From positions 257,238,001 through 257,302,000 of the forward strand of contig CM126204.1 in NCBI GenBank assembly GCA_052327205.1: a DNA stretch of 64,000 nt. Reading direction: 5' to 3'. Positions within the stretch are counted from its first letter, which is position 1. Every line of letters starts with the position of its first letter. The stretch comes from Somniosus microcephalus (Eukaryota). Below, in pieces: positions 3,001 to 52,694 of this stretch. A program made the position numbers and the translations under genes. Under the pieces are notes generated by a model. It saw nothing but the letters and a program-made list of their open reading frames with translations, had not been told where the DNA came from and made no database searches.

Positions 3001-3810
3001 CCATCCCCTGCCCGGACATGACCAGCGCCACAGTCATCAGGTGCCTCAGCGACCTGTTCGCCATATTTGGCATCCACAGTGACAGGGGCTCGTCGTTCAT
3101 GAGCGACGAGCTGCGCCAGTACCTGCTCAAGAAGGGCATAGCCACGAGCAGGACTACCAGCTACAACCCCCCGGGGTAACGGACAGGTAGAGAGGGAGAA
3201 CGTAACGGTGTGGAAGACCGCCATGCTCGCCCTAAAATCCAAGGGCCTCCCAATCTCCCGCTGGCAAGATGTCCTCCCCGATGCGCTCCACTCCATACGA
3301 TCACTGCTCTGTACTGCCACAAACGCCACCCCTCACGAGAAGATGTTCGTCTTCCCCAGGAAATCCACCTTGGGGACATCACTACCGCCATGGCTGACGT
3401 CTCCGGGACCCGTCCTGCTCAGGAAACACGTGAGGAGCCATAAGACGGACCCCCTGGTCGAAAAGGTTCACCTCCTCCACGCCAACCCACATTACGCCTA
3501 CGTGGCGTATCCTGACGGGCGGGAGGACACAGTCTCAATTCGAGACCTCGCACCCTCAGGTACCACCCGAAACACCATCGATCACCATCCACTACCTCCA
3601 CCCACCACCACTACCCACGACGCACCACCGGGGTGTCTACCACAAACTGACGACATGCCGGTGCCATCCCTACCCCGAGAGGACGACACGCCAGTGCTCT
3701 GTCCCACGCGAGAAGCGGCCGCGGGCAAAGAACCGCCGCAACCGGCACCACGAAGATCATTACGGCAGACAAGACCCCCCCCGGAGAGACTTTCGTATAC
3801 GAACTTTTGA
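18..3810 (+). pseudogene. Gypsy gag-pol polyprotein, disrupted
   Basis: Split over ORFs 18-806, 967-1515, 1290-1565, 1572-3179 and 3208-3810; frameshifts near 700, 1415 and 3170; in-frame TGA at 1563-1565. Confidence 0.9.
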
Positions 3811-5685: not shown

Positions 5686-6271
5686 ATGCCATCGGAATTG
5701 GAAGTGCACCAGATCGAGCCATTGAATGAGCAGCAAGTACTAAACTCTGAAGGTGGTTACGTGTGGCACGTGACCGACATGACCCGCCTGCGCCGGTTTC
5801 TCTGTTTTGGTTCTGAGGGTGGAACATACTACACCAATGAGGAAAAGCTTGGGAAAGAAAATGCTCAGGCCATATTGAGACTGATCGAAGAAGGTAAAGG
5901 GGCTGAGGTTGTCCAGGAGATAAAGACATTCGGTATTGAAGGAAGGGCAGTCACACAAGATCCTACTTTGTTCACCTTGGCTCTTTGTACACAATGCTCA
6001 GATGCTTCCACAAAACAAGCTGCATACAAAGCTCTGGCTGAAATCTGTCGCAATCCAACCCATCTATTCACATATATCCAGTTCAGAAAGGATCTGAGTG
6101 GAGGGATGAAATGTGGTATATGGGGAAGAGCCCTGAGGAAAGCAGTGGCAAACTGGTACAACAGTAAAGATGGGATGGCTATTGCAATGGCAGTTACAAA
6201 GTACAAGCGGAGAGCAGGATGGTCACACAAAGATTTGCTTCGGTTGTCACATCTGAAGCCAGCTAATGAAG
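5686..6271 (+). CDS. RO60: RO60 coding exon 1
   Basis: ATG at 5686; LNSEGGYVW...HLKPANE; donor G|gtcagt. Confidence 0.95.
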
Positions 6272-9200
6272 GTCAGTAATAATATTGTGTAGCACTGATT
6301 TTTCTCCCCCAACTTTCTCACCTCCTGTCTAGAAGCTGCCTAAAGTGACTGACCATCTGATAATTTAAATTTCCTTCCCTCTTGGGATCGTGCCCTGACC
6401 AGCAATATATTGACTTGGAAATCGCATTGGTCCTACCATTCATTGCTAGAGGAATTGAATGAACGTATGATTACCCAGCAAGTTAGAATCAATACATACA
6501 GCGGGAACAGTACCATAGTGGTAATATTACTGGGCTAGTAATGCAGGAACCTGGACTAATGATCCAGAGAAGTGAGTTCAAATCCCACCTCGGCAGCTGG
6601 GGAATTTAAACTCAGTTAATTAAATAAATCTGGAATGAAAAGCTAGTATCAGTAATGGTGACCATTAAACTATCGGATTGTGGTTAAAAACCCATCTGGT
6701 TCACTAACGTCCTTTAGGGAAGGAAATCTGCCATCCTTACCTGGTCTGGCCTGTATGTAACTCCAGACCCACAGCAATGTGGTTCACTCTTGACTGCCCT
6801 CTGAAATGGCCTAGCAAGTCACTGTGTTGTAACAAACCGCTATGAGAAGCAATAATAAGGATTAAAAAAGCGGACAGACCACCCGGCATCAACCTCTGCG
6901 CCAGCTACGGACACGGCAACGGCACACCCAGCCCAGTCGACCCTGCAAAGTCCTCCTCACCAACATCTAGGGACTTGTGCCAAAATTGGGAGAGCTGTCC
7001 CACAGACTAGTCAAGCAACAGCCTGACATAGTCATACTCACAAAATCATACCTTTCAGCCAATGTCCCAAACTCCTCCATCACCGTCCCTGGGTATGTCC
7101 TGTCCCACCGGCAGGACAAACCCACTAGGGGTGGCGGCACAGTGGTATACAGTCAGGTTGAGTGTCCTCAACATTGATTCCGGACCCCATGAAGTCTCAT
7201 GGCTTCGGGTCAAGCATGGGCAAGCAAACCTGCTAATTACCATCTACTGCCCTCCCTCAGCTGATGAATCAGTACTCCTCCATGTTGAACACCACTTGGA
7301 AGAAGCAATGAGAGTAGAATGTACTCTGGGTGGGGGACTTCAAGAGTGGCTCGGTAGCACCACGACTGACCGAGCTGGCCTGGAGGACATAGCTGCCAGT
7401 CTGGGCCTGCGACAGGTGGTGAGAGAACCAACGCGAGGGAAAAATCGACCTCGTCCTCACCAATCTACCTGTCACAGATGCATCTGTCCATGACAGTCCC
7501 GTCTTCACACTGCGGACACCCTCCATTGTGTTGTATGGCACCCCCACCGTGCTAAATGGGATTCAGAACAGATCTAGCAGCTCAAAACTGGGCATCCATG
7601 AGGCTCAGCAGAACTGTATTCCACCACAATCTGTAACCTCATGGCCTGGGGTTATCCGTCACTCTACCATTATCATCAAGCCAAGAGACCAACCCTGGCT
7701 CAATAAGGAGTGTAGAAGAGCATGCCAGGAGCAGCACCAGGCATACCTAAAAATGAAATAACTACAGAAAATGCTGGAAATACTCAGCAGGCCAGGCAGC
7801 ATCCGTGGAGAGAGAAACAGAGTTAACGTTTCAGGTCTGGGACCCTTCATCAGAACTGGAAAAAGCTGGAGATGTAACATATTAAGCAGGTGCAGAGACA
7901 GAGACAGCTATGCCTGCCTGTTCATGGGACATGTGGAACATTCTTTGTTCCAGTCCTACTCAGGTCCCCTCCCTCCCCTCTTTTTCCGGTACATCAATGA
8001 CTGTATTGGTGCCGTTTCCTGCTCTCGCCCTGAACTGGATAAGTTCATCACTGTCATTACCCAGAGCTAAGAAGTAAGGCACTTCTACATATCCAAAAAA
8101 GCAGTAAAATATGGAGAGATGGGCAGTCAATATTAAATTCACAAAACAATTTAATTGTAACAGTAAGAGCTTGTTTCTGCTATTGGAATAGACCTTTCTA
8201 ATAAATTCCTGACTATATACAGCAGTGGTGCCACTAATAAGTAACCATGCGAGAAACTTTAACCTTTTTTTTAATAAAACTTGTTGAATCTGGTACTTTG
8301 CCTTTAATATTCTTTTAGACCTTGCATCTCTAACTGACTAAAAGAGCAGGTGGGCAAGCAACTGTAGACTATGTCCAACCTCCGCTAACACTGTTGTGTG
8401 GCTCGTCAGTAGGCATTGCTAAAGTAAGACCCAAGGTCTGCACTGATGCATTTTCTTTCTGTCCTTTTCATTGTTGTGCTTGAACCAGTCAAGATCGCAC
8501 CAATTCATCCTCTAGGAGATGTCAAGGCTGCGTACTTTTAAACTTAGGTGTCATTTATACAGTACTAGCTGGGGGAGCCCGGCTTTGCCAGGGCTGTTTT
8601 GGGCCGGGCGGTTTAAATCGAGTGCGAGGCTTTGGGGCCTCTCTGTGTCCCTCTGTGAATCTGCTGCCAGGCAACATTTTAAATCGAGTCCCAGGCTTTT
8701 GGGCCCTGTCTGTGTCCCTTTGTGAATCTGCTGCCGGGCAACATTTCTACCTTTTAATACCTTGAAAGATGAAAGTGAAAGTACTTATAAAACGTTTTTG
8801 GTAAATCTTATGTTATTTTTAAAAGAGATACTAACTTTTTCAAAGCTGGATGATCAAAGTAGTTTGAGCTGGAAGCAGTGAAACAATGGCTGCCACATCC
8901 CTGAGATGAAAACGATTAGTCCCGCCCACACACACACACCGATTGGCCAACCATCAGGGGACCGTACTGTAGGATTGGTCAATCGTGACGGCACAGGATT
9001 GGTCGAACCTTGACGTCAGTCAATCAATGCTAAGTAGCAGATAATGAGTTTAATTTTGAAGGTTTTTTGCATAAGGCGCGAACAATTTTCATCCGACCGA
9101 AAAGTAAATACGCTTGCGACCGTCCCGGAACCGTAAGCTTTCTTTGGAGGTAACGCGCGTAGGTAGGCTCTATAACTTTCGAGCGCATAGCCGGACAGAC

Positions 9201-12200
9201 GCACACCCGAGGACAGACAGACAGAAGGACAGACAGATAGACAGACAGACAGAACGACTCGTTTATATATATAGATAATGTTTGTTAATCGCCTTCTAGC
9301 TTTTGCCTCCTGACTAGAAGACAAGTTTAAATTGTATTTTAGTCTGGTTTTCACACTCCGCCTTCCTGTGCAAGGATGAGTTTGGACCAGTCCTTGGTTA
9401 TTTGCATGTAAGCGATGGTTTGGTGCAAAAAGAAAGGGCCTGGGGAGAAATCCTATACTGAATTGCTTGAGTGCCCTTGGTGCTGTTCTATGGATGTCTC
9501 TGGGCTGGATCATCTCATCCGACTGACTAAGAAGGTTGAGGAGATATGGGCATAACTTGGGTGTGTTGGCGGGGAAAGAGAGGAATTGCAATATGTATCC
9601 AGCTTTCTGAGGATTAACGAATAAATAATTTCACTTAAATTGTGGTTGCCTGCCAATAAAAATGTATAATTGAAAGAGTTGTACTTCTCGATTTTGAATA
9701 ATGAATCAGTGCCCTACAAAGCTAGGTGGGAAACTAAGCTGTGAGGAGGACACAAAGAACCTGCAAAGGGATATAGACTGGTTAAGTGAGTGGGCAATAA
9801 GGTGGCAGATGGAGAGATTGTGAGAAACTATTAAATGTTGGTGTTCAGAGAGATTTAGGTGTCCTCGTACAGGAAACGCAGAAAGTTAGCATGCAGGTGC
9901 AACAAGCAATGCGGAAGGCAAATGGTATGTTGGCCTTTATTGCAAGGGGGTTGGAGTACAAGAGTAAGGAAGTCTTGCTACAATTGTACAGGGCTCTGGT
10001 GAGACCACATCTGGATTACTGTGCACGGTTTTGGTCTTCTTACCGAAGGAAGGATATACTTGCCTTAGAGGCGGTGCAACGAAGGTTCACTAGATTGATC
10101 CCTGGGATGAGAGGGTTGTCCTATGAGGAGAGATTGAGTAAATTGGGCCTATACTCTCTCGAGTTTAGAAGAATGAGAGGTGATCTCATTGAAACATATA
10201 AAATTCTGAGGGGGATTGACAGGGTAGATGCTGAGAGGTTGTTTCCCCTGGCTGGAGAGTCTAAAATTAGGGGGCATAGTCTCAGGATAAGGGGTCGGCC
10301 ATTTAAGACAGATGAGGAGGAATTTCTTCACTTAAAGGGTTGTGAATCTTTGGAATTCTCTACCACAAAGGGCTGTGACTGCTGAGTCTTGGGGCTCAAT
10401 TTTAACTCAGCCGTCAGGTGGGCTTTGAGGCGTGTAGGGGGTTAAAATCGCAGAACCTGGGGGTCGGGACCCCCCCGCCTGGTTCCCGACACCTAGCCAT
10501 TTTAACCCAGGCGTGTCTGATGGTCCCGAATCAGTCCCGCCTGCAACAGGCGGGACTAGTCTTTAGGGCCCTTAAACAGCACTAATTGGCCTTTATATTC
10601 CCATTTTAACAGGCCCTTGCCTGTTTAACCCTTTTCCCACATAAAACACGCCTGGTGGGGATCACGCCTGTGAAACCTGGCGTGAGCACTATTGGCTTGC
10701 TGACTATCAGCTGCAGGTCAACCATTAAAAAGGAGATTTGATCATCATTTGCAGGTGGCAGGACTTTGTTGTCTCAGGCCTGGGGCAACTTTTACCAGGA
10801 TTAACCACACCTGTGGAAGGTTGGAGTCTCACACACTTCTCCAGTGTGACCTCCTGCGAAACCCCTCTCGCCACCCTCACTCAGCGTTTCCTCAACTGAG
10901 GCATCTACCAGAAGTATGGGGGGCCTTTTTTTTCCTTCCCTTCTTGGCATTAGAGGACCTCCAGCACCAGGCGCGGCAGCAGCAGAACCAGGAACAACAG
11001 CAGGAGCAGGAGCGACAGGCTGCTGCTCACCCACCTGAGGCAGCACAGGCCAGAAGGGGCCAGCGCATGGAAGCCCGTCGGCGCAGGAGATACCTCCCAA
11101 ACAGGGTCTACAGACACAGGGTCAGCTACCTCAACATGACTGAGCAGCAGTGCCAAAGGCAGCTCTGACTTTCGCGACAGGTAGTGACTGACATCTGCGC
11201 AATGATACAGCAAGACCTGCTGCCCAGAGGACCAGGTGGACACTCCTTACCAGTGGCCATCAAAGTCACCACCGCACTCAACTTTTTTGCCTCAGGCTCA
11301 TTCCAGGGATCAGCAGCAGACATCAGTGGCATCTCCCAGTTGGCCGCACACACTTGCATCACGCAGGTAACCGATGCCCTCGCGCACAATCACATCCATT
11401 TCACCAGGGATCGCGCAAATGTGACGGCGCGAGCAGTTGGATTAGCTCATCTGGCAGACTTTCCAAGGGTGCAGGGCGTTATTGACTGCACACATGTGGC
11501 CCTTAGGGCACCCCATCACAATCCAGGTATTTTTGTCAACCGCAAGGGTTTCCACTCCCTTAACGTTCAGCTTGTGTGTGACCACAAGAAGGAGATTTTG
11601 CACGTTTGTGCCAAGTACCCTGGCAGTTGCCATGACTCCTTCATACTGCGCCAGTCTAGTGTGCCTCCACTATTCAGTCCGCCGGACCAACTTCACGGAT
11701 GGCTGCTTGGAGACAAGGGCTATCCCCTGAGGACTTGGCTAATGACGCCATTGAGGAGGCCAGCCAACGAAGCTGAGGAGCGCTACAACTCCAGCCACAA
11801 GATCCGCCATCGAGCAAACCATCAGCTTGCTGAAGATGCGCTTCAGATGCCTGGATAGATCAGGTGGAGCCCTACAGTACTCAGCAGCCAGGGTCGCCAG
11901 AATCGTTGTGGTTTGCTGTGCACTCCACAACATGGCACAGCGTCGTGGCTTGCAGGTTCCTGAGGACCAAGTGGCTTCTCGCATACCCTCCTCATGATGA
12001 TGATGATGAGGAGGCGGAGGAGGAGGGCGAGAATGAGCATCCTGCAGAGGCCCATCAACCAGCGGCAGCATTACGTGAGAACATTGCTGCCCGGGATGCA
12101 AGGAACGCACTCATCCTGGCCAGATTTGCTTAGCCTAGTAAATCAAACTCTTTTGCCTCACAGCTTCTTACCTGAGCATCGACAATGGCCAAACCCTGCA

Positions 12201-15200
12201 GATTCCTAGCTATTTGACCAGCATCCTGACAACTGCAAGTAATCCTAAGCCCTCAATGTGAAAGCCCCATTCGCGGAATGACACACGCCAGAACTGCAGC
12301 AGTTGCCATCAGAATTTTTATGCAAAACAAACAACTGATGGCATTTTTACAAAATACACAACATTTCACCCAAGTGACTATTTGTGCTTTATTTTCCTCT
12401 TATGCCTGCTCCTACGTAGTGGTTCCCCTGTGGCTTCAGCAGATGTGGAGGCCCCTTGCTCACTTTCCTGCTGCTCCTGTCTCGACACCTTTGGCAGGCG
12501 TCCTCTGGGGTGGCGAGCCTGCAAGGGCTCGTCAGCAGTCTGCTGCTCCTGCGGCTGTGCAGGAGTTGAGACGTCTATCTCAGTTGGGTGTGGACTCTGG
12601 CAGGGCTCTGACCGAGGGCTCTGCAGTGGCATGGAAGTGTGTGCGCTTGGAGAAGAGCCCCCACTTCCTTGAGGTCTGCCACCAACCTCCCTCTCATGGG
12701 TCAGGTCCCCCTCAGTGCCTGCAAGTGACTTGAGAGCACCTTGCTGCACATCAGGGGGGCCATGGGGACCCGTATCTGCAATGGCAGTCCTACTCGGAAG
12801 GACTTCCATGAAGGTCTGGTTTCTCTGTTCAATAGATGCCCATCGCTCCTCAGGAGATGTCATTCTATTCTGAACACTCATCATGTTTTCCATACCCTGG
12901 CAACTAACCTCCTCCATGGTCGTAGCCCTCCTCTCCTCTACCGTAGCCATCCTCTCCTCTACGGTAGCCAGCCTTACCACGGAGGCAGCAATCATTTCCA
13001 CGTAGGTAGCCACCCTTTCTGTGTTGATGTGTTAATGCGCCACTGACTCCACAAAGGCTCTGCTCATGTTCGCTATGGACTCCTCCATTCGCTCCACACT
13101 CGCAGCGACCCTGGAGACAAAACCTGCCAGAGACTCCTGCATCTGTGCATGGAGTTCCATCACCTCTGATCTTACAGATGGACCCAGAGGCAGAGGGTCG
13201 ACATGCAGCTGAGCCGAGCTGGCAGAGTCCTGCACCCTCCGGCGAGGACTCTCCACTGCTGTTCCTGTCTCCACAATCTGCTGATGCTCACTTGTGAGCT
13301 GTGATACACCAGGTGACAACTCTACTCTATGTCCCGAAGGTCCCACCGAGGTGTGAGTGTCTGCGCTGGTGCTGGGTGCGCTTATTTCTGCTGACGCTGC
13401 ACCCTCAGAGGTTGCAGATTCCTCTGAGGAGTCTGGCATCTCAGGCTCTTCCTCCTGCACACTGGGGACGGGGGCTCTCGATGGTCCTGTGGGGGAGTCA
13501 AGGAAAAAATTAGAGATGTGATGCCAAGGTTACATGCACATTGCATTTTGCAGATGATCATAAGTCCATATGATGTAGCTTCAGAATCATTATCAGCGAC
13601 TCATGCAATGCCAATGAGAGAGATGGAAAACTATTCTGTCACCAGCTTGCGGGGATGCACCTGTCTGTCCTTCCCCAACTTCCGCATCTCTGTCAGCCCC
13701 GACAATCTCCAGGACGCCTTCCTCCCAGAGGGTGAGCTGGGCTAATGAGGGCGGCAGTCCTCCTGTCCTGGCTCGCTCTCTCCTGTTGTGAGCTCTCTTT
13801 TCCTGCAATGGGGGAGACAAGTGGAGGTTGAGTGAGAATGAAGGAGTGAGTGCAGAGATTGTATAGCATAGATACTTAGAGGGAGACAAAGATGGAGTGA
13901 GGTTGCAAGACCAAGGGCCCTCCCTGTGTGTTGTCAGTTGTGTTCAAAGCATCAGAGTGAGAGGGAGTGTGAGGGCTGCATGGTGGCATAGTTATGTGAA
14001 TGTGAGCATAGAGAGAGAGGGAATGGGTAAGGGTGCATGGATGCGAGTGTCAAGTGGGATGTGGAGGAAGAGATTGCTAAAGCTGAGTGCTGGTGAGGAA
14101 AGGCAATGGGGATCAGATTGAGGGTGATGGAAACTTCATACAGTACTTACTTTTCCAGTGCGATGAAGGTCATGGAATCTTTTCCTGCACTGCATCCAGG
14201 TGCACCGTGTGAGCCCCAAGGAGTTGACTTCCCCTGCCACCTGTAGCCACACAGCCTTGGTCTGACTGGGAGGCCTCTTCCTCCCTGAAGAAGGGAACAG
14301 GACCTTTCTGTGGGCCCTAGCACCATCCAGCAATGCCTGGAGTGAAGCCTCATCAAATTTTGGGGCAGCTCTTGCCCTCCCGCTGGCCGTTGCTCCTGCA
14401 GGCTCCTGTGCCATCTCAATGGTGAAGTTTGGAAGCCTGCAGAAGAAGCAAGGCTTGCTGTGGACCTTAAAAGCAGCAGCAATGGTGACGTCATATTCTG
14501 CGACTTTCTGACTGGAAATACTCAATTGCCAAGGCTTCCCACACGTTGGAAATCAATTGGCCAATTGAGTTAAAATTGCATCAATCTTACAGACCCATTT
14601 AGATTCGTGTGTGAAACACCAAATTTGGGGAACCCGACAATTTCCCGCACCTGAGTTAAAATTGACCCCTTGGAGTATATTCAAGGCTGAGTTCGATAGA
14701 TTTTTGGACTCTAGGGGAATCAAGGGATATGGGAATCGGGCGGGATAGTGGAGTTGAGGTCGAAGATCAGCCATGCTCTATTGAATGGCGGAGCAGGCTC
14801 GAGGGGCCGTATGGGCTACTCCTGCTCCTAATTCTTATGTTCTATGCACATGTTTCAAACGGGTAACCAAAATACCATATTTAAATTTTCTATTTAGTTT
14901 GCTAAGTTGGCCACCTTAGTGATGCAGTAGGTGCGGATGCAATGAACGAAATCAAAATCTAGCTTAATATGTCAACATAATGCTGACAAATTAGAACCGT
15001 TTTGGGCTTTATTGATTTTCCTTGATTGTTGGGAAAATTTTGACCGTAAGCAAACAAAGCGACTAGAATTTAATGTGAGTATGTAATTGTTTCATTTCAG
15101 AATACACTAATGCATATTGCATAGTGAATCCAAAAACATTGTCCCACAGCAGGGGTGGAGAATGGTATTTTCAGCCAATTTGTTCTGTCTTTTCCAGATC

Positions 15201-36662: not shown

Positions 36663-37316
36663 GTCATAAACTACAAGATTGATTTGCTAGTCATCTTAAT
36701 CCAAAATTTGGATTATATCCTGCAAAATATTGTTATGGTTCCATTGAGGGCAACCAATTCTTTTGATATTGGAGACTAAAGTAGATCCAAATGATATACG
36801 GAACATCACACAATGATACTGTGTAATTAGTCTAGATTTTTAAAGAAAGGACGCATGCTAAGTTGAGTAAAGTAAATTCTAAATATTTTCAATAACAGAA
36901 ATCCTGGTTAAAGCAAAGAATTGAACGGACAAGATTAAGATGGATATTGATTTTCTTTGAGGCTACTTATCTTCGAAATTCTTTCCCTCATTTCTTCCCT
37001 CGATCTCTCGGTCACCTGTAACCACTAAGATCGACAGCTAACCTCCTCCCGGACTCATCAAATACTGTTCTGTATTGACCACTAAGGGGCATGCAAGAGC
37101 AGTTTGGGAATGACTAACTGTTCACCCCTCTCTGTGGGGAAGGAGCCTTGCTGGCACCTCCCTAAAGTTCTTCAGCTAAGATTGGGAGCTCAGCAGAATG
37201 GCTCTCAGACCTGTGCCTCCTTGACTTGTGCCACCAAGTTGCTTTTAGACACCGTTAGATATGTAATGTATATTTCCTTCATAAATGGTGACCCAATTGT
37301 AATGCACCATGGAGAG

Positions 37317-37571
37317 TGTAAAGTCTGTGGGTTGTGCAGTTAATAAATACACAGACTTCAGAAGTAACAAACAAACAGGTCTTTACTATTCGAAGGTCCG
37401 GGCGAATCTGCCCCAGAAATCCTGCTACAACACTTATATACTGGTGTGGTCACTATCGGTATTACAGTATACAGAAGCCAAACAAATAGTGCCACACCTA
37501 AAGTAGTTCCCTTAAAGGTGAACGGTTACATTCAATAGTTCCCTTAAAGGTAGACGGGTACATACACTACA
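37317..37571 (-). repeat. 3' LTR
   Basis: Direct repeat of 42234-42488. Confidence 0.95.
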
Positions 37572-37993
37572 ATCCTCCCTTTTTAGCTTATTACTTAGAG
37601 TCCCTGTTAAACATACATATCTTCAACTTCCTATAAAACAAATTACAGCTATAATCTCGGTGGAGTCAATGTCATATAAAACAATTTACAAATATAATCT
37701 CGGTGGAAACAGTTCACAGGTTCCGTCTCTGCGGAAACAGTTCATAGATTCAGTCTCTGATCTTGACTCGTTCCGAACAACATTTCTTTGGGGTAGCCGG
37801 TTCACCTGGCTAGCGTGACTCCTCCATAGCCTTTTTCTTGACATAGCAGCTTGAACTTTCGTCCTGTTGAACCAGCAGTGCGGACTTTGACAACCAACTG
37901 GCTGTCTTGACATTTACCAGTTTTTCAACTAATTTAGCTCCTTTCGTAATGTCCCGCCTGGAATGGTAGAAGTGCTAATATTTTAGACAGTTA

Positions 37994-40900
37994 TTATCTT
38001 CTGCTTCTTCTTTTTCTTTTCTGCCTTTTTGAAACTCTCGGAGCTCCTTTCTCGGCTGCCAGCTGTAGCACCACCAACTCTCTATGTTCCTTAGACCTTA
38101 AGTGCTTCCTCCGGATTTCAGCACTTTGGGAGTTTTCATCACAAGCTGGGCAGACCACATCCTCGTAATATTCAGTGTCACTCAACAGGTCATGGTAATA
38201 TTCGGGTTCGTCCTGAGTTAGGCCAGCGAGAGAGCCTTCTTCTTCCTCCTCACCCGTCTGGACGTTAGCTGACGGTGGTTCCTTCCCTAGACATCTTTCT
38301 TGAAAAGACTTCTTCATGCATTCATATTCATCCCGCTCTTCCTGGGTTGTCTGCCATTCCTTCACTACTGACCTCATTTGTGAGTTCAATACCTTCCCTT
38401 CCACCGGGGATTGCGGTATCAGGCTATTTAATCCTTCTACTGAAGCAGCTGTTTCAACATTCTTCTGTTCACATTGACGTGATTCAACGAACTCTTCATA
38501 GAGTAAACTGTAACACAAAATCTGTGTTGCCACCTCAGTTATTTCTGTAACTTTTGGGAGCTCCGAATTCCTTCCCTTTGCAGATTGAAGCTCGTGTTCC
38601 CATTGTGGAGTCTTGTCTCTCAGCATGTGAAGGAGTTGGCTGACCGTTAACTCTTCCGCGGGGACTCTGTGGATCAGAGTCTTCACCATTTCATCCACCT
38701 TTCCCTCCAATGCTTTCACCTTCCTTTCCTCTTGTACTTTGGTTTCAAGCGCTCGAAGAAGTTGCGCCTTGATGCTCCCAAGCTCATGTTCAGAGCCCAT
38801 TCTTACAGTCTCTGTGTTTCTTACAGTTTCCTTCCCTTCCACTGAAAGGATTCCCAGTTGACTCTGCTCTTCAAGTCGTTGAACCTCGGTCATTGCCGCC
38901 TCATATTTATCTTGGGTTTCCTCCAATATTTTTATGAGTTCTTGGACATCTTGTCTTTCATGTTCTGCCATGTCTTTCACCGCTAAATTCTCATCTATGG
39001 ATGGAACTTTTACCGATGAGTCTGTCTTGGCCTTGAGCTCATCAAGAATTTCCTGCAGCCTTTGGACTTCTTGCTCATGTTCAACCTTTAGTTGTTCATA
39101 TGCTTCTACTGAAACTAGCTTTTCGGAGGCTGCCGAGTTAATCCCCTCCAGAATTGTAGCCTGGGCCTGTTCATACTGTTCTTTCCACTTCTCACACTCT
39201 GCTTGTAAGGAGTCATAGAGAAGAACTGGAATAAAATCCCGGCTTCCTGAAGATTCCTCTTCATTTGCTTCTTTCGCAATTTCCTGTTGGAGTTCAGCCA
39301 AGGCTGCTATGCTATCTGCCTCTTGAAGTCTCACTGCCATCAAATCTTCTTTATTCTTGCAGTCTATCTCAGTCATTTTCCCTTTATTTTCATTCAACTG
39401 AGTGATAAGCTCCTCTTGCAACATGGCCACATTATTCACATCAGGTAAAGAAGCGTTTCTCTTTTCCATGTCCAAGATTTTTTTCTGCATCTCTTTAAGT
39501 GCACACTGCGATTCAGCTTCTCTTAACCTTGCCTGCACTAGCTCCGTCTCCAATTGCAGAACAAAATCCTCAGTGTAGCGTGGTTTGCCTTTATGCTGTA
39601 TCTCTAGATCATGCAAATATTCTAACTCCTGAACATCATAAGGGAGGTGTGATCGGTAATTGGTCACGATGGCTCTATGGTCGCTCTCTGCTTGAGCCAG
39701 CAGGTTCTGTTGTCTTTCCAGACTCTCCCATTCGGTGTCATAGAACTTTTTCATTGTTTTCATCTCTTGTACGAGACGGTAACTTAATTGTTCGAATTGT
39801 TGTCGTACTTTGAAATAACGTTGAGTTCGAGCTCGGTGTTCCTCCGTAATGCATATGTCTGTGACTTGAACAGACTCAGAATTCTCTGTCTTTATGCACG
39901 CCATCGTTTTTCCAACCTTAGTCAGTGAGTTCATGTTAACCTTGTTTTTCATACGTGGGCTGGACTTATCGTCTTCCGGCTCAGAGTCTGAGCTGCTTGT
40001 CTGCACCGAGTCCTCACTCGTCATTGCTTGTAGGTAGTGCCATTCCATGTCTATTTTCTTGATCCACTCCCGTCCTAGAAGTGGTGGTCCTCCCTCATGT
40101 AGTACATACAAGTTCATTCTTGGGTGTTCTTTACCCCATCTCTCACCTTGACGGTATACTTTATGCCCCGTGTATGTCTGTAATACGAACTTGGTATCTC
40201 TTAAGGGTATGTGTGAGAAAAGCCGGTGGTAATCCCCTCGATTTATGACTGATACAGCTGATCCAGTGTCCAACTCCATTTTCACTTGGACTCCAGCTAT
40301 TTTTAGCATGACCCAGATAGTTTGTAGGTCAGCTTCCTTACTCACATGGTGGATACTCAGACTACCCAGCTCCTGGCCGTTTGGATCTGAGTCTGGATTC
40401 TGTTCGTCTGAACTCTTCTCAGCCCCCTCGTATACCTTGTTGTACTTTTCTTGTGATGGCTTCCTTTGGTTGTTGGTCTTCTTCCCTGACCGGCATACCT
40501 TAGCGATGTGACCCAGTTTGCCACATTTCCTACATTCTTGGTTCTTAAACCAGCATTGATTCTGGTCGTGTGTTGTCTTCCCACAACGATAGCATTTTGT
40601 TGTACTCGAGGTAATTTGGTCCACCCCGAGCGCCGCCGCCTTTAGTTGCATTTCCGCCGTTCCTTTCGCGGCGGCTTCGTGTGATGCGGCTATAAGGACA
40701 GCCCTGTCAAGTGTAAGGTCGTTCTCTTCTAGTAGGCGCTTTTGCGTCCCTTCCTTGGACAATCCGCCTACGAACTTGTCTCGCAGTGCCTCTGTCAGAT
40801 TCCCTCCGAACTGGCAGTATTTCGCTAGCCTACGCAGTTCGACCAAGTATTCTGCGTTGTTTTCGTCTTTCCGTTGCGTTCTTGCATAGAATTTGAATCG

Positions 40901-41164
40901 TTCAGCCAACATCAACGGTGTGGGGTTCAAGTGGTCCTTCAGAACAACCACAATCTCTTCGAAAGACTGATCCGCCGGTTTAGCTGGTGCTAGTAAATCC
41001 TTCAAGAGCCCATATGTCTTTGCGCCCATCGAGTTTAACAATGTTATCGCCTTGTCGTCTTCCTCTATTTTGTTGGCTTCACAATAGATCTCGATGCATT
41101 CCACGTACGTGGCCCAGTCTTCTATCTCAGAATTAAAATCATTAATATTCCCTCGCTTAGGCAT
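37994..41164 (-). CDS. Gag-protease fused to host-derived coiled-coil and zinc-finger segments (1056 aa, intact)
   Basis: aa1-170 Gag, two CCHC knuckles (aa191-224), protease LDTGSAVS...LLGREW (aa283-375); no RT/RH/IN motifs; C-terminal ~680 aa are acidic coiled coil, a CPAC..H..H finger and a basic tail. Confidence 0.9.
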   Translation of the reverse strand: MPKRGNINDFNSEIEDWATYVECIEIYCEANKIEEDDKAITLLNSMGAKTYGLLKDLLAPAKPADQSFEEIVVVLKDHLNPTPLMLAERFKFYARTQRKDENNAEYLVELRRLAKYCQFGGNLTEALRDKFVGGLSKEGTQKRLLEENDLTLDRAVLIAASHEAAAKGTAEMQLKAAALGVDQITSSTTKCYRCGKTTHDQNQCWFKNQECRKCGKLGHIAKVCRSGKKTNNQRKPSQEKYNKVYEGAEKSSDEQNPDSDPNGQELGSLSIHHVSKEADLQTIWVMLKIAGVQVKMELDTGSAVSVINRGDYHRLFSHIPLRDTKFVLQTYTGHKVYRQGERWGKEHPRMNLYVLHEGGPPLLGREWIKKIDMEWHYLQAMTSEDSVQTSSSDSEPEDDKSSPRMKNKVNMNSLTKVGKTMACIKTENSESVQVTDICITEEHRARTQRYFKVRQQFEQLSYRLVQEMKTMKKFYDTEWESLERQQNLLAQAESDHRAIVTNYRSHLPYDVQELEYLHDLEIQHKGKPRYTEDFVLQLETELVQARLREAESQCALKEMQKKILDMEKRNASLPDVNNVAMLQEELITQLNENKGKMTEIDCKNKEDLMAVRLQEADSIAALAELQQEIAKEANEEESSGSRDFIPVLLYDSLQAECEKWKEQYEQAQATILEGINSAASEKLVSVEAYEQLKVEHEQEVQRLQEILDELKAKTDSSVKVPSIDENLAVKDMAEHERQDVQELIKILEETQDKYEAAMTEVQRLEEQSQLGILSVEGKETVRNTETVRMGSEHELGSIKAQLLRALETKVQEERKVKALEGKVDEMVKTLIHRVPAEELTVSQLLHMLRDKTPQWEHELQSAKGRNSELPKVTEITEVATQILCYSLLYEEFVESRQCEQKNVETAASVEGLNSLIPQSPVEGKVLNSQMRSVVKEWQTTQEERDEYECMKKSFQERCLGKEPPSANVQTGEEEEEGSLAGLTQDEPEYYHDLLSDTEYYEDVVCPACDENSQSAEIRRKHLRSKEHRELVVLQLAAEKGAPRVSKRQKRKRRSRR

Positions 41165-42233
41165 CTTTCTTCCCTTGGGAGCAGCACCAGTATTTCTTTA
41201 AGTATTCTTATTTATTTGTTTATTTCTAAGATGGCGGTTTTCCCGCGAATATGGCGGTTTCCCGCTCTTCCTTTCTCTCCCCGCCCACTTCAATGGCGGT
41301 ATGTCAATCAAGATGGCGGTTTTCCCGCGAAAATGGCGGTTTCCCGCTCTTCCTTTCTCGCCCCGCCCACTTCAATGGCGGTTTCCCGCTTCTGGCGTCT
41401 TCTCCGCCTAATGGCGGCTTCCCGCGTTTCTTCCCGGTGGAAGGGGTACGCTTCCCCCCACAGCGGACAGGTTCAGCCGCTGGCTGGCTACCGCACAGCT
41501 CCCCTTACTCGGCTATGTCTTTTCCTCCCGCCCGCACGGTTCTACCGGCGCTGGGTACACCCCGTTAACAGAGGACAGTTCAGCCGCTGGACTGGCTCTC
41601 GCGCAGTCTCTCTCTCCGTACCCGGCTCTGTCGCTCTCTCACCCGCACGTTCGGTGTTACCGGCCCTGGGTACCCCGTTGGTGGAGAACAGCTCAGCCGC
41701 TGGACTGGCTCCTCGCAGTCTCTCTCTCCGCACCCGGCTCTCACCCGCACGGTTCCCGTTCGCCTCCCCAGCCCTCTCGCAGACCGGTGTTTCCCTCCCC
41801 GGCTGCAGCTGGGTTTCTCTTCCCGCGCCTACTCGCAGGCTCAGCGCTTCGTGGCTGCGGTCGCTGCCCAGATTTTTCCCGCCGATCGCGGTCCAGCTGT
41901 CACCCGACGCCGTTGGACCCGACTTTTGGCCGGCACAGCTCCCCCTCGACCGAGGTCGAGTGCTCTGCCCTTATCCTCCGGATACTTCTACACCTTCCCC
42001 TACTCACAGTCTCTTCGGCCGCCTTGTTTCTTGCTGGTCGGCTCACTCCGCACCGTGGCAGAAGGGTAGTCAGTGCCTGTTGCTGATACAGCTTTTGTTG
42101 TTAGTCTTCCTGCTTTCTGTTGTTGCAGCCTCGTGTTTTCTTTTGGTAGCACGACGAGGGCGGTTGTCTCTCTTCGACGCTCTTCGTTGCTTTTGGTAAT
42201 CTTGCCGCAGGGTATGATCGGACTCGTCGCCAC

Positions 42234-42488
42234 TGTAAAGTCTGTGGGTTGTGCAGTTAATAAATACACAGACTTCAGAAGTAACAAACAAACAGGTCTT
42301 TACTATTCGAAGGTCCGGGCGAATCTGCCCCAGAAATCCTGCTACAACACTTATATACTGGTGTGGTCACTATCGGTATTACAGTATACAGAAGCCAAAC
42401 AAATAGTGCCACACCTAAAGTAGTTCCCTTAAAGGTGAACGGTTACATTCAATAGTTCCCTTAAAGGTAGACGGGTACATACACTACA
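42234..42488 (-). repeat. 5' LTR
   Basis: Direct repeat of 37317-37571; on the element strand it is followed by the PBS. Confidence 0.95.
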
Positions 42489-43440
42489 GAGAGCACTGAC
42501 TCTTTCCTATGAATCTTCCTACACGTTGAATTTTTGATCTTAGTTGATATTCTAGAGGTGCTAAGTTTAGCCAAAGAACCTTCTCAAAGAGGAAGTTAAG
42601 GAATTGAGTCACACATGAGGCCGTCAGCCATTAGTTAAACAGCAGCCCAGGCAGTGACCTGGTGGTCTCCCTCTGGACTGATGCATTGCAGAGAGAAAGA
42701 AAGGAAAGATCCTAAAGGCTGGCCGAAAACAATGACACTTTTTTTAAAGTGTTTTTTCATAAATCAACTGAAATTGCTATTATGCCTTTTGGGTGAAAGG
42801 AAGTTAGTGGAGGAATACAAGACTTTCCCATCCTTTTACTCAGTGACACAGCTAGGTCAGCTCTAGCATATGTTTCTGATGTCCTAGCATTTGTTAATGT
42901 TTTTTTTCTTTGTCCAATTTTCTTCCCTCCTCCACTGAATATGTTTACTTGAGTTGGAGTACAATTTCACAGGTACCGGGCACCGAACTGGCTATTGTAT
43001 ATCTGAAAAGTGAAGATTGGTAGGATATTTGACTCTTTGTGTGTGGGTATGGGAGAGTATCATAGCCAAGCCTGATCCAGTCCTCAACTGATGGTCACAC
43101 ATATACTTTCTAGTAGCAATCGCTGGGTAACATTTTAGAGATACAACCTTGATTGTTTTATCCCTCCCCACCCATCCCACCTCACCCCATCCCTAGACCA
43201 ACAGGCCTAAGGCCAAACAATGGCTGAGGTCTCCTAGGGATCTAATGTGGAACCTTTCTGGTCTATATAACTCAATTCCATACAGGCCAGTGCATCTACT
43301 CTCGAGTTATCCAGCGAGTTATTGGGCTGTTTAACATGATCCTCATTTATAAATTATTACAGTGCTAGGTAATCATATATATGAACCTTTAAAAAGATGA
43401 GACAAAGGATTTACAGTATGTAGAAATCTAGCAAACTTAC

Positions 43441-43617: not shown

Positions 43618-44620
43618 CTGAAAGAAATGAATTCAAGAGTTTTGTTTTCAATTTCTTAAAAAGAAAACAATATTTCTCCTCTACTCGTCCCTTATTTGAT
43701 TGCTAACCATTGCTGTAGTTGAATGTTATTATTTCCCAGAAGACTGGTCTTTCCTATTAATTTCAATAAGGGTTATTGCTTGGTTAATCAGCACATAGGC
43801 CCGTATTTTCCGATCGGAGGCTTCCTGCGTGTGGAGGCCTCCAATCTGGAAAAAAATCTACGGACTTACCTGAGGTCTCCCGAGGTCTGGACACTTCCGC
43901 TCCTGAGCCTCTCCAACTCGAAATGCGCAGGGCCCACGTATCCCAGAGGTACATGTGGTTCACAAGCATCCCTGGGATCACGTGGGCCATGGAGAGCCAA
44001 TAGGCGAAGGGAATCTCCCTTCATACACTTGACAGATAGACCTGTCAAATGTATGAATGGCGATCACCCCAAAGACACTGTAAAACATTAAATAATTTTT
44101 TTTAAACATCACGGCCTAGAAATTCAGTTAGTAGCGCCAGCCGCTAGCGCCTTAAGAGGGCGATAAGTGGGGCGCGAAGCAGCTAGCACCCGGGCGCGGC
44201 GCGATCTGCACCTCTCGCGAACTTGAGTGGACATTTAGCGGCGGCGCAAGACCGCAACGCCCGCTCAGCTGCGCGCACAGATCCTGACGTCATTTCATGG
44301 TGCAACGCCCTTGGTGCGCCCCGAACCGGAAGTTCAGTGGCGCCCCCCTTCTTTCCGCCTGGCGCTCCAGCGACTGGTTTAGTGGAACGGTTCCCAGTCG
44401 CTGTGGGGCTGGGGGGGCGCAATTTAAAGGCGGCTCTTCCTGCCTTCTTTGTGGTAACCATTTTGGACCACTTCTGTGTGAGAGAGAGAGATTTGCAGAG
44501 AGACAAAGGGAGAGAGCTTTCTGCTTTGACTCAGTGCTCGCACAGGTACTTCTGGCTTCAGCCCAGACCTTTGCAGTTGGATTGATTTTTCAGTGCCATA
44601 GCCTTGAGTGGCCACCTATA

Positions 44621-46066
44621 ATGGGGGCTGCAATGGGTGGAAACGTTGGGTTTCTCCATTGCATTGAGAGGGCTCAGAGATGCCGAGAGAGACTGCCAAT
44701 CATGGCCAGACGGAGGAGGGCCAACAGGCGTCGGCACAGGAGGCCTTACCCTCCCAGGGTATACCGCCAGCAGTTCTCATACCTCAACATGTCTGAGGAG
44801 CAGTGTATTCGGAGGCTTCGATTCAGAAGGGAGGTGGTCACTGAGATCTGCCACCTGCTTCAGAGAGATCTGCAGCCTCAGCTGAGGAGCAGGACGTCTC
44901 TGTCGGTGGCAGTGAAGGTGACAGTGGCTCTGAACTTCTATGCCACCGGCTCCTTCCAATCCGCTACTGGGGACATTGCCAATGTCTCCCAGTTCACGGT
45001 GCATTGCTGCATCCGCCAAGTCATGAATGCTCTCTTCAAAAGGAGATCACAGAAATCACAGAAACCTCACAGTGCAGATAGAGGCCATTTCGGCCCATCG
45101 AGCCTACACCGAAACATATCCCACCCTATCCCCGTAACCCCACGTATATAATCCCCCTAACACTAAGGGTCAATTTATCATAGCCAATCAACCTAACCTG
45201 CACATCTTTGGACTGTGGGAGGAAACCGGAGCACCCGGAGGAAACCCACGCAGACACAAGGAGAATGTGCAAACTCCACACAGACAGTCACCCGAGGCCG
45301 GATTCGAACCCGGGTCCCTGGCGCTGTGAGGCAACAGTGCTAACCACTATGCCACCGTGCTGCCAGTACATGTCAGTACATTTCCTTCCCCATGACCCTG
45401 GACAAGCAGCAGGAGCGTGCAATGGGAATTGCAAGAATAGCGGGCTTCCCCATGGTCCAGGGCGCCATTGACTGCACGCATGTGGCTTTGCGGGCGCCTC
45501 TGGAGAATGCCGAGGATTACTGCAACCGGAAGGGGTTCCATTCGTTGAACGTGCAGTTGGTGTGTGACCACAGGCAGCTGGTACTAGCTGTCAATGCCCG
45601 CTTTCCAGGCAGCAGCCACGACGCCTTCATCCTGCGCCAGGCTTCTTTGGCAGACCTTTTCGAAGCCCCGGCTCACCCAGGAGGCTGGCTTCTCGGGGAC
45701 AAGGGCTATCCTTTGTGCACCTGGCTGATGACCCTGCTCCGTGCGCCCAGCACCCCTGCTGAAGAGCGATACAATGACAACCATCAAGCGACCAGGAACA
45801 TCATTGAGCACACAATCGGCATGCTAAAGCAATGGTTCCGCTGTCTGGACCATTCTGGGGGAGCCCGTCAGTACTCGCATGAGCGAGTCTCCCATTTCAT
45901 TGTAGTGTGCTGCATGCTGCACAACCTAGCTATCCTCAGGACTCAGCCACTGCCAGCAGACATTGGAGGACCACCAGAGGAGGAGGAGGAGGAGGAGCAC
46001 CAAGACGGGAGGGAGGCACAAAGTGCAAGGGCCGTCCGTCAGCGGCTTATTGCAAGTCGGTTCTAG
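44621..46066 (+). pseudogene. Harbinger transposase interrupted by a SINE
   Basis: MGAAMG...VTVALNFYATGSFQ, then the SINE (45047-45364), then [37 protein letters not shown]. Confidence 0.9.
45047..45364 (-). mobile_element. HE1-type V-SINE (tRNA-derived)
   Basis: On -: GGCAGCACGGTGGCATAGTGGTTAGCACTG...GGGTTCGAATCC head, V-domain TGTCTGTGTGGAGTTTGCACATTCTCC, CR1/HER1-type tail GATGGGCCGAAATGGCCTC. Confidence 0.9.
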
Positions 46067-47680
46067 GCCCACTCTCAGGGAATGGCTTGTGCCATTGAAA
46101 AAACATGAATGGACCCGCTCCGCAAACCCTGAGCCGGTCAAGGCAACAAATAGTTCAAAGTGCAAACATGCACAATCTGAATAAAGACACTTCTTTAGTT
46201 AACAAACTGTGTGCCCTTCCCGCATGACAAAGTAATAGAGAGAAACCCCCAAAAAAGCAGTCAGACACATAACTGGCTCTCACAACCTGGAAACAATGAA
46301 CAAAAGAGTTAAACAAAAATGACCATGATCCTTGGCCTTCACAAAAAAAAACACAGCATTTTGCCACACCTCCTACTTTTTGGCCTGCGAGGGTGATCTG
46401 CCTTGCTTCCGAGATTGGCCCCTTCCCACCCTGCAGCTCCTCCGCAATGGGACCCCAGTGGCTGCAGCAAGGCTGGGGGAAGGCTGCTGAGGGTCAGATA
46501 GTGAGTCGGCAGATGCCCTTGGGGAACAGCCTGGACCAGCACTGGGCCTGGAGGGCCCGGCTGCTGACTGCTCCAACTCTGCTTGGGCAGCAGCAGTCTG
46601 TCCTACGGGTGGTGGCAGCTGCAGTAGAGGAGTGACAGTGTTGGCAGCAGGAATGCTGCCAACCTGACAGAGCACAGGCACTCCCTGGTCGGACGGGACA
46701 CTGGCACTCGCACGGGGCAGCACTGAACCATGCGCGGCAATCTGCTGAAGCACAGACTGCTGGCCTGCTGCGGCGCGGCGAGGGCCCCGGCGAATCCTGC
46801 CCGATCCAGCAAGGGTGGCAGCAGTTAGTGCTTGTGTGGCCCTGATCTGTGTCTGCATCAGACCAGCCAGTGACTGCATGGCACGACTAAGCACTTGGCT
46901 GGAAGCTGCCTGTGCTGCCCCGAATTCCTGTACACTCCTTGCCAGTGACTCTATGGAGTCAGGCATCCTTGCCACTGCAGCCATGAGCTCAGTGTGCCTG
47001 CACTCCGCCTGGGCACCCATTTCACCAAGGAGCCGCACCTCCTCTGCGCTCACTGTAGCAGGACTGGAGGCCACACTCTCCCTCTGGGGAGAAGGCCGCC
47101 GAGCTTCCCTACCCCCTCCGCGTTGCTGCAGCCCGCTGGGCCCCGGAGCTTCCCCCTCCTCAGACCCTTCCCCCCCTGCTCCCCTCCAGGGAAGACGTGT
47201 CCCCATTATGGCCATGGGCTGCCTCGGCTGAGGGTGGCACTGATGTTCCGGCTTCCTCTTCCTCCTCCTCGCCTTCCGATTCACTCACAGTGGCAGCTTG
47301 AGGGCCCGCCTCCTCACCTGGCGAATCAGCATCTGAAAGCAGGGAGGTACAAGAGTTGCTTTAGCGTGAGGACAGGGCGGCAGCGAGGGAGGCATGAGTG
47401 CTGCAATGCACTGCATTGGTTCAATAGTGGCAAAGGATGCTGGTGTGAGGCACAAGTGGAAAGAGAGAGGACCAAAAGGTGATCTCCTTACCATTGCTGT
47501 CCAGAACGAGGTCGGCATCTCCAGTGGCGACGGGGCCAATCAGTCGGCCTGCCATAATCCATTCCAATCGCTGCTCCAGATCGCTGAGGTCTTTAAGTTC
47601 AGGGCGGCCTCCCCCGGTCTGTTGATGCTGCCTCCTATTGTGGGCCAGCTTGCCCTGCAAGAGAAAGGACGGGCTCTGAG

Positions 47681-51182: not shown

Positions 51183-52694
51183 CCTGATCTTGGCTGCACT
51201 GCCTCCCATGGTCGAATAGCCCTTACAGTGTGTAAAGTGGTGATTGTGCATGTGATTTTCATGAGAGGCCCATAGGTCTTGGATGAGGGCTGGGCATTGG
51301 GGCTTTCAGGACCCTTTGGCCATAAAGTGAGGTGCACATGCAGGGATGAAGAGGATACTGGAAAGGGTACTCACCCTGATAACCCGAGTGAGGTCATTGA
51401 ACTTCTTCCTGCATTGCGTTGGGGTCCTAGGTACCATGCTGCTGGAGGTCACTCTGTGTGCCACCTCCCTCCAAGCTTTTCGATATTCGTTGGGTAGCGA
51501 CCTCCTGCCACTGTCCAGAAAGAGGATAGGTCGCCTGTGCTCCACTGCGCCAACCAGGACCTTCAGGGCCCCCTCACTGAAGCGCTGCGCTCGCTCCCTG
51601 CCCCTCTCCATGGTCGTAGGCGTAACGATGTCGCAGCAGGTCTTTCCAGGCCTAGAATCAGGGCTCCAATGTGCAGGGCGTGGCTGCAAGCCAAATCGAC
51701 CCTCCCCCTTTAAGAGGTGACCGGCGCCAGCATGTCTGCCTGCAATCGCTAACTGGCCGCACCTGCGCTGCGCCCGCCCTCGGTGGTAGCGCCTTGCCTC
51801 TCCAGCTTAGCGCCTTAGGATAGTCGTGCAGCGCCTGCTTTAGTGCAGCAAGAACCTCTTGGGGCAATGCAACTCAATTTTGCTGAAGGTGGCGCTAAGT
51901 TGCGCCAGGCGCTAAATTTAGCGTACGCTCGACTGTAGCGCCCCAAACATGGCGATACTGAATTTCTAGGCCCACATTTTTAAAATGAGTTGAAATTACA
52001 ATAAATTAAATATTTTAAATATTTTTTGAATAAAATAATTAAAGTTTTTTTACGGGGCTAAAAATAAACTTACCTTTTTTTAAAAGTATTTTTAAATGCT
52101 AAATGAGTGAAAACATTTTTTAAAAACTTTTTTCAGCTCATATGCTGGTAAAAGCAGGCCTTTCGGAAAGCGGAACTCTCCACCCGCAGAGGCCCTTCTC
52201 TAGGGCAGGCTTCCGATCTGTCAAGAGCATTCTTGACAAATCGGAAATGCCGGTTTTCAGCGCATGTGCTTGGCATGCCTGAAACTGACATTTCCGATGT
52301 CCCTACGGGTGTGTACACAGCGCGAACACACCCGTAGGCATCGGAATATATGGCCCATTGTGTTATCTGCATCTGTACATTAAGCCCCTGTTCTGTGATA
52401 GGCTTTGGCACCCTGAAGAAAATTCCCAATACTTAAAACAAAACTCACAACATTCTTCAGCCAGGAAGAAAGAGAAAGGCTGCCTGCTCTATAATCACTG
52501 CCAATGCTGTTCCTCAGGAAGGTCATCTTTTCCAAGACTTCAAGAGGCCTTAAAGTAATTATCAAATGTATTGGATATCGAGCAAAAAGAGAGACTCCCA
52601 AAATTAAGGAATGTATTAGGAAGGAATTGAAGAAGCCAGCAGCAAATTCTAAATACTTCCTCCATTATAACACAAGTTTTGGCTACTTCCCATG

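Follow-up and report, generated by a model that had tools for sequence, protein, structure and literature searches.

The window, a stretch of 64,000 nucleotides from Somniosus microcephalus (GenBank assembly GCA_052327205.1, contig CM126204.1, positions 257,238,001 to 257,302,000), carries on its minus strand a long terminal repeat (LTR) retrotransposon, the features of which are detailed in Table 1. As an earlier examination of the letters without database searches (the sequence-only reading) had described, the element has two LTRs, identical when aligned, a 5-bp target-site duplication (TSD), a primer-binding site (PBS), a polypurine tract (PPT) and one uninterrupted open reading frame (ORF), in which Gag, two CCHC knuckles and protease are followed by no reverse transcriptase (RT), RNase H or integrase (IN); the Pfam scan of the element agreed, and none of these three enzymes was matched. 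The zf-CCHC, aspartyl protease and gag matches of the ORF were all under the curated cut-offs in the window copy, and its protease region is 18 nt shorter than that of sibling L004. TG...CA LTRs, PBS, PPT and a TSD of 4-6 bp are those of Ty3/Gypsy elements. The PBS presumably matches tRNA-Ser, and the 5-bp TSD, two knuckles and single ORF would fit the Mag clade. The sequences make it highly probable that the element belongs to a non-autonomous Ty3/Gypsy family whose pol was replaced stepwise by spliced exons of five host genes, with several of the templates likely circular; the circular templates are read from the geometry of junctions in DNA.

Table 1. Features of the retrotransposon and other features of the window.
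Feature	Position	Strand	Remarks
5' LTR, 255 nt	42234-42488	-	TG...CA; 100% identity to 3' LTR
TSD, 5 bp, 5' side	42489-42493		CTCTC read on minus strand
TSD, 3' side	37312-37316		CTCTC
PBS TGGCGACGAG	42223-42232	-	Common to pol-coding relative
5' leader	41165-42222	-	Internal tandem repeats; length differs among copies
Single ORF, 1056 aa	37994-41164	-	Gag, protease, host-derived cargo
Gag	40475-41164	-	Two CCHC knuckles at aa 190-225; Pfam
Aspartyl protease	40031-40312	-	DTG; Pfam
STK10-derived piece	39698-40019	-	Three native exons, 79-85% (nt); probable remnant of founding one-turn capture
ANKRD24-like piece 1	39612-39706	-	Forward splice join, 66-nt YAVQ exon, back-splice into start of 1512-nt exon
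EVI5 insert	39276-39611	-	One turn of a putative 5-exon circle, minus two in-frame internal deletions (177 + 150 nt)
ANKRD24-like piece 2	38650-39275	-	94% (nt) vs native exon
Optineurin-derived exons	38230-38656	-	Three exons, spliced, colinear; 75-85% (nt); 3' limit approximate
C2H2 zinc finger and basic tail, DNAJC21-like	37998-38229	-	5' limit approximate
3' untranslated region (UTR)	37760-37993	-	Decayed remnant of STK10 turn and pol end; frame-breaking indels
PPT	37572-37584	-	Before 3' LTR; common to pol-coding relative
3' LTR, 255 nt	37317-37571	-	100% identity to 5' LTR
TROVE-domain exon	5686-6279	+	RO60-like gene
Separate Gypsy element	18-3810	+	gag, protease, RT, RNase H, integrase in broken frames
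Two Harbinger-like DNA transposons	11202-13439 and 44297-47215, 51306-51611		DDE_Tnp_4
LINE RT fragment, 629 aa	47965-49854	-	

The cargo downstream of the protease was compared with protein databases, where its nearest proteins are from sharks and rays. ANKRD24/ankycorbin was matched by name over one third of the cargo (73-76%, E 3e-76), as was EVI5 (E 2e-41), while the optineurin piece (about aa 837-975) matched one protein, the optineurin of Mustelus; the STK10 and zinc-finger pieces of the window copy gave no protein-database match at E 0.001. Native donors were found in the same genome (6.4 Gb): an ANKRD24-like gene on C13, EVI5 on C3, optineurin on C17, and on C8 an STK10/SLK kinase gene, both tested kinase exons of which scored higher against STK10 than against SLK. 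A gene on C1 holds a zinc-finger exon, a basic-tail exon and a second C2H2 finger, and two of its exons match the element (at 38111-38065 and 38036-37998); we take this gene to be DNAJC21. A Pfam ZUO1-like_ZHD match that had been considered as the DNAJC21-like donor turned out to be another J-protein gene.

All four donors proposed by the sequence-only reading were recovered. The resemblance to EVI5/EVI5L held. STK10, placed at aa 440-497, is matched by native exons and begins at aa 382; ANKRD24, placed at aa 635-838, was the right donor, with a further piece at aa 488-517 overlooked; for the DNAJC21 zinc finger the locus match held, and the gene name is the part that we presume. Optineurin had been missed altogether. 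Introns, the absence of which had been suggested as a check, are lacking from every capture, in which exons are joined directly, and both the gene-to-gene joins and the internal deletions lie mid-exon at microhomologies. A fourth optineurin exon is present in the sister L073. Separately from the family, the C-terminal exons of STK10 were observed as an intron-less retrocopy in which 225 aa form an open frame (L093, G000:C3:354658271-354658945, minus strand), and an ANKRD24-carrying subfamily copy lies antisense in an intron of its own donor, between the captured exons (L109/L110, G000:C13:62867719-62870650).

Two joins of the window copy are in back-splice order. At 39629/39628 the GT donor of the ANKRD24 YAVQ exon runs directly into the AG acceptor of the 1512-nt exon, which lies 11.6 kb upstream; at 39596/39595 the fifth EVI5 exon likewise passes from its donor to the acceptor of the first exon, which is 45 kb upstream of it. 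The ANKRD24 template was spliced, because the forward join into the YAVQ exon is present as well. The EVI5 insert lies inside the ANKRD24 piece, starts one base after its end point and has TTGC on both sides. Among the sisters, L196 contains six STK10 exons, from native 42993 via the back-splice to 43006, that is, one turn plus 14 nt. L197 contains a piece presumably derived from a BAZ1A-like gene, the acceptor of which was predicted from the insert alone and then found as the sole genomic match; this insert closes on its own start, with AGT duplicated. All four back-splice-order junctions of the family lie at exact GT/AG boundaries, and non-colinear exon-exon joins of this kind are what marks sequence derived from circular RNA (circRNA) in Dong et al. 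(PMC4897178). Three of the captures (STK10, EVI5, BAZ1A-like) return to within 3-14 nt of the point at which they began. For the two circles covered by the computation, the probability of a chance backward join, in frame, running from donor to acceptor was 1.2e-5 (ANKRD24) and 2.1e-4 (EVI5), or 3.2e-4 and 1-2.6e-3, respectively, given the local microhomology.

The DNA search of the genome gave 33 scored places (among 9,884 candidates), all of them long matches at 95-100%. An own 5-bp TSD was found in 21 of the 22 two-LTR copies examined, with 0-6 LTR mismatches, and L021 showed 19 LTR mismatches and no TSD. The ORF was open at 18 of 30 sibling loci, these being the best matches to the window copy, mostly with 1062 aa. 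With exact patterns of 23-24 nt, the EVI5 junction was counted in 1,133 genomic copies (the EVI5-bearing clade) and that of the STK10 junction subfamilies in 855, with 0 for the reversed-pattern control in each case; two zinc-finger motifs gave 109 and 181 matches, nearly all of those viewed lying in further subfamilies. All these counts are lower bounds. Dispersed young copies with their own TSDs and no RT or integrase, in excess of 1,000 by junction, bear out the young, multi-copy, non-autonomous family that had been proposed. An Arg/Lys-rich C-terminal tail occurs in many subfamilies, derived from the end of pol in some and from the DNAJC21-like exon in others. In L204, L210, L211 and L212 the optineurin/zinc-finger cargo is combined with a divergent Gag-protease and another PBS spacing and PPT, which suggests that this cargo has moved between families. 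In a sister subfamily (L187, L190, L192) the protease is followed by two more inserts, of which one is small and zinc-finger-like and the other presumably KMT2A-like; the KMT2A-like and BAZ1A-like pieces had no match in Pfam or PDB. One locus with the marker bases of the EVI5 clade has no EVI5 insert, being either a direct precursor or a case of precise insert loss. Among sequencing runs X1-X6, three organism labels contain 43-67% of the sampled words of the window ORF, and contigs of X4 (organism C) have the same joins as the window family; the element family may be common to related species.

A pol-coding relative was identified, with 40 of 40 scored matches at 98-100%, protease (PR)-RT-RNase H-IN order and no env; gag-pol is uninterrupted in two of six fetched copies. 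Its PBS and PPT are those of the window element and its Gag-protease is about 65% identical; it is a candidate for the present-day helper acting in trans. At L086 (G000:C20:81522500-81531500) an EVI5-type element is inserted in a copy of this relative. An LD[DE] motif occurs in the protease-RT linker of the relative, at the end of its integrase and at the STK10 entry point, and its presence at all three places would agree with an origin of the lineage by replacement of pol with a single STK10 turn. The tree built from 21 real Gag-protease regions is nested from STK10-only elements through those with added optineurin, DNAJC21-like, ANKRD24 and EVI5 pieces to a 150-nt deletion in EVI5 (the window type), the titin-, KMT2A- and BAZ1A-like inserts being side branches. 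Synonymous divergence (dS) of the window copy from its donors declines in the same order, from STK10 (0.26) and optineurin (0.24) to ANKRD24 (0.10) and EVI5 (0.025); the DNAJC21-like zinc-finger piece has too few codons for dS.

The family is transcribed. In two RNA runs from one study, linked by species label only, 23,760 of 16.65 million and 14,559 of 14.40 million records matched the internal region at ≥90%, these reads stemming from the whole family. First mates lay mainly on the plus strand in X7, which, provided that the library was stranded in the usual way, indicates sense transcripts; X8 was without clear bias. Element transcripts carry the same back-splice junctions as parent circles would. 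Some reads pass over the EVI5 insert and carry a base that looks native; they were considered as a free ANKRD24 circle and rejected, for such sequences also occur in non-RNA contigs and at one genomic locus.

How the frame has stayed open allows several explanations. It is rather unlikely that the cargo protein is itself of use, be it to the element or to the host; it might, for instance, build a coiled-coil scaffold within the particle, or act as a decoy that binds partners of optineurin or EVI5. The frame has survived five captures, four of the five pieces are coiled coils, transcription is sense-biased in one run, and the ratio of non-synonymous to synonymous rates (dN/dS) against donors is 0.57-0.73. 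For the window cargo this ratio is 0.73 (132 non-synonymous and 62 synonymous changes in 573 codons; P 0.08 versus neutrality). When the window subfamily was paired with 17 copies from other non-autonomous subfamilies, however, dN/dS was 0.11-0.40 for Gag-protease (0.08-0.29 for Gag alone) and 0.59-0.82 for the cargo in the seven of these 17 pairs in which the cargo could be aligned; moreover, successful subfamilies carry unrelated cargo, such as immunoglobulin domains, and the pieces are truncated, permuted and internally deleted. These cargo values and the copy number (>1,000) also contradict a domesticated host retrogene, that is, a single fixed locus with strongly purified cargo, which was rejected. 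That the frame is open through youth only, with no selection, is hardly credible and largely refuted: although 12 of the 30 sibling loci are broken by stops or frameshifts and singleton changes in sibling cargo are near neutral (0.71), about 194 substitutions relative to the donors have left no stop where 9.2 were expected (P 1e-4), and ORF gaps among subfamilies are, apart from a compensated 7/4 pair, multiples of 3, which does not hold for the leader or for the STK10 remnant of the 3' UTR with their frame-breaking indels. We infer selection for translation to the end of the ORF, on account of RNA stability, cis packaging or the basic tail, and hardly on the cargo residues. The sequence-only reading had offered selection on the polyprotein or on the frame alone; the data favour the second over selection on the cargo residues.

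The same reading had proposed serial mRNA capture by RT template switching. Serial capture of spliced RNA agrees with the donors, the missing introns, the microhomologies and the intermediate elements; several templates look circular and not like linear mRNA. If all templates were linear, the backward joins would come from RT switching between two mRNA copies, trans-splicing or transient tandem exon duplications. This is improbable, even though CAG/G is common to the splice sites and provides the joins with 2-4 nt of microhomology, some captures of the family are linear, the two RNA runs showed no host circles, and Dong et al. (PMC4897178), in the part of the article available, allow other origins of non-colinear joins. 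Against it, four of four backward joins fall on exact splice boundaries and forward deletions fall mid-exon; closure within 3-14 nt of the start in three captures is not predicted by two linear templates; and no second copy of the acceptor exon was found downstream in the fetched donor regions, the BAZ1A-like acceptor being unique in the genome. Several observations nevertheless weigh against the stepwise replacement of pol from partly circular templates. The ANKRD24 capture covers about 720 of the 1,743 nt of its circle and is therefore not a full turn. The titin-like capture had been expected to be back-spliced, which was ruled out, its five exons being colinear, as are those of optineurin; linear mRNA therefore also serves as a template. 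Among the read joints listed for the two RNA runs, the library selection of which is unknown, none was typical of a free EVI5 circle, so that the host circles are deduced from DNA. Neither a search of 67 kb upstream and 33 kb downstream nor one by pattern revealed the exon that should precede the DNAJC21-like zinc-finger exon; a run of N lies 1 kb upstream. The LTR of the pol-coding family is only 72-76% like that of the window element, some tree nodes are weak (0.43-0.83), Gag-protease recombines (L204), and the broken siblings count here too. In several lineages the dN/dS of the cargo falls a little short of 1 (L073 0.57, P 0.004), so that weak constraint on the protein is conceivable.

Under the partly circular, stepwise replacement that we favour, the element would supply its own Gag and protease and borrow RT and integrase in trans. 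The RT would switch template onto co-packaged host RNA, several of these RNAs likely circular, enter a circle at a short homology, copy once round and jump back; it is proposed that RT runs out of template after one turn because RNase H has removed the stretch copied first. We lean, with some reserve, to a wider proposal, in which circRNAs are a preferred capture substrate of LTR retrotransposons, exactly one turn is copied and in-frame circles integrate like cassettes; in the shark lineage a Gag-protease-cargo polyprotein would have been assembled and remodelled in this way on at least four occasions, with cargo swapped between families.

As for its surroundings, the window element may lie antisense within a downstream intron of the RO60-like gene. 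The remaining transposons of the window are listed in Table 1; the Harbinger-like elements have partner ORFs that we take to be Myb/SANT-like, and many CR1/L2-like fragments occur in addition to the LINE RT fragment.

If the wider proposal is true, this shark lineage constitutes a natural record of exon shuffling driven by circRNA and of the germline circRNA pool. The family also shows a selfish element shuffling exons in permuted order, in thousands of copies. Entry and exit points, one-turn length and intermediate elements are preserved and offer a testable route for the writing of circRNA into genomes, which the descriptions of circRNA pseudogenes, in the portions available, had left open. 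The family is also a clean natural case of an open frame that is selected and residues that are little selected.

Acutely transforming retroviruses transduce oncogenes as gag-host fusions in place of pol and depend on a helper. Unlike them, the shark family is a germline retrotransposon without env, the captured residues of which drift with no sign of a selected function. The literature searches, the coverage of which excluded subscription journals and Repbase, listed no description either of the family or of one-turn capture. As far as the sections available go, mRNA capture by LTR elements and pseudogenes derived from circRNA are each known separately, and no publication came up in which one-turn capture recurs within a mobile lineage. 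LTR elements capture host RNA at microhomologies, multi-gene chimeras included (Tan et al. 2016, PMC5131818), and the intron-less host exons that replace internal ORFs here, with microhomology joins, show the features of such LTR-mediated retrocopies. Those retrocopies are mostly single- or few-copy loci, and the word 'circular' is absent from the main text of that article; the shark family, by comparison with what is described there, has thousands of copies, purifying selection on Gag-protease, nested stages and one-turn inserts. Maize Bs1 is similar in being an LTR element with gag and three host-gene pieces in a chimeric ORF (PMC5131818, PMC13317346). It is a plant element of one to five copies with one piece out of frame, and the passages on it do not mention back-splice order, whereas the shark family holds five donors in one frame and is actively radiating. 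In circRNA pseudogenes, such as mouse circRFWD2, the reversed exon-exon junction marks the circular template (Dong et al. 2016, PMC4897178); in the passages available, 33 copies with LTR-rich flanks are described, their mechanism is termed mysterious and the frame is not kept. In contrast to these pseudogenes as so described, the putative shark circles lie within an LTR element that is complete; homologies mark where they were entered and left, their length is exactly one turn, and such events have occurred repeatedly and independently.

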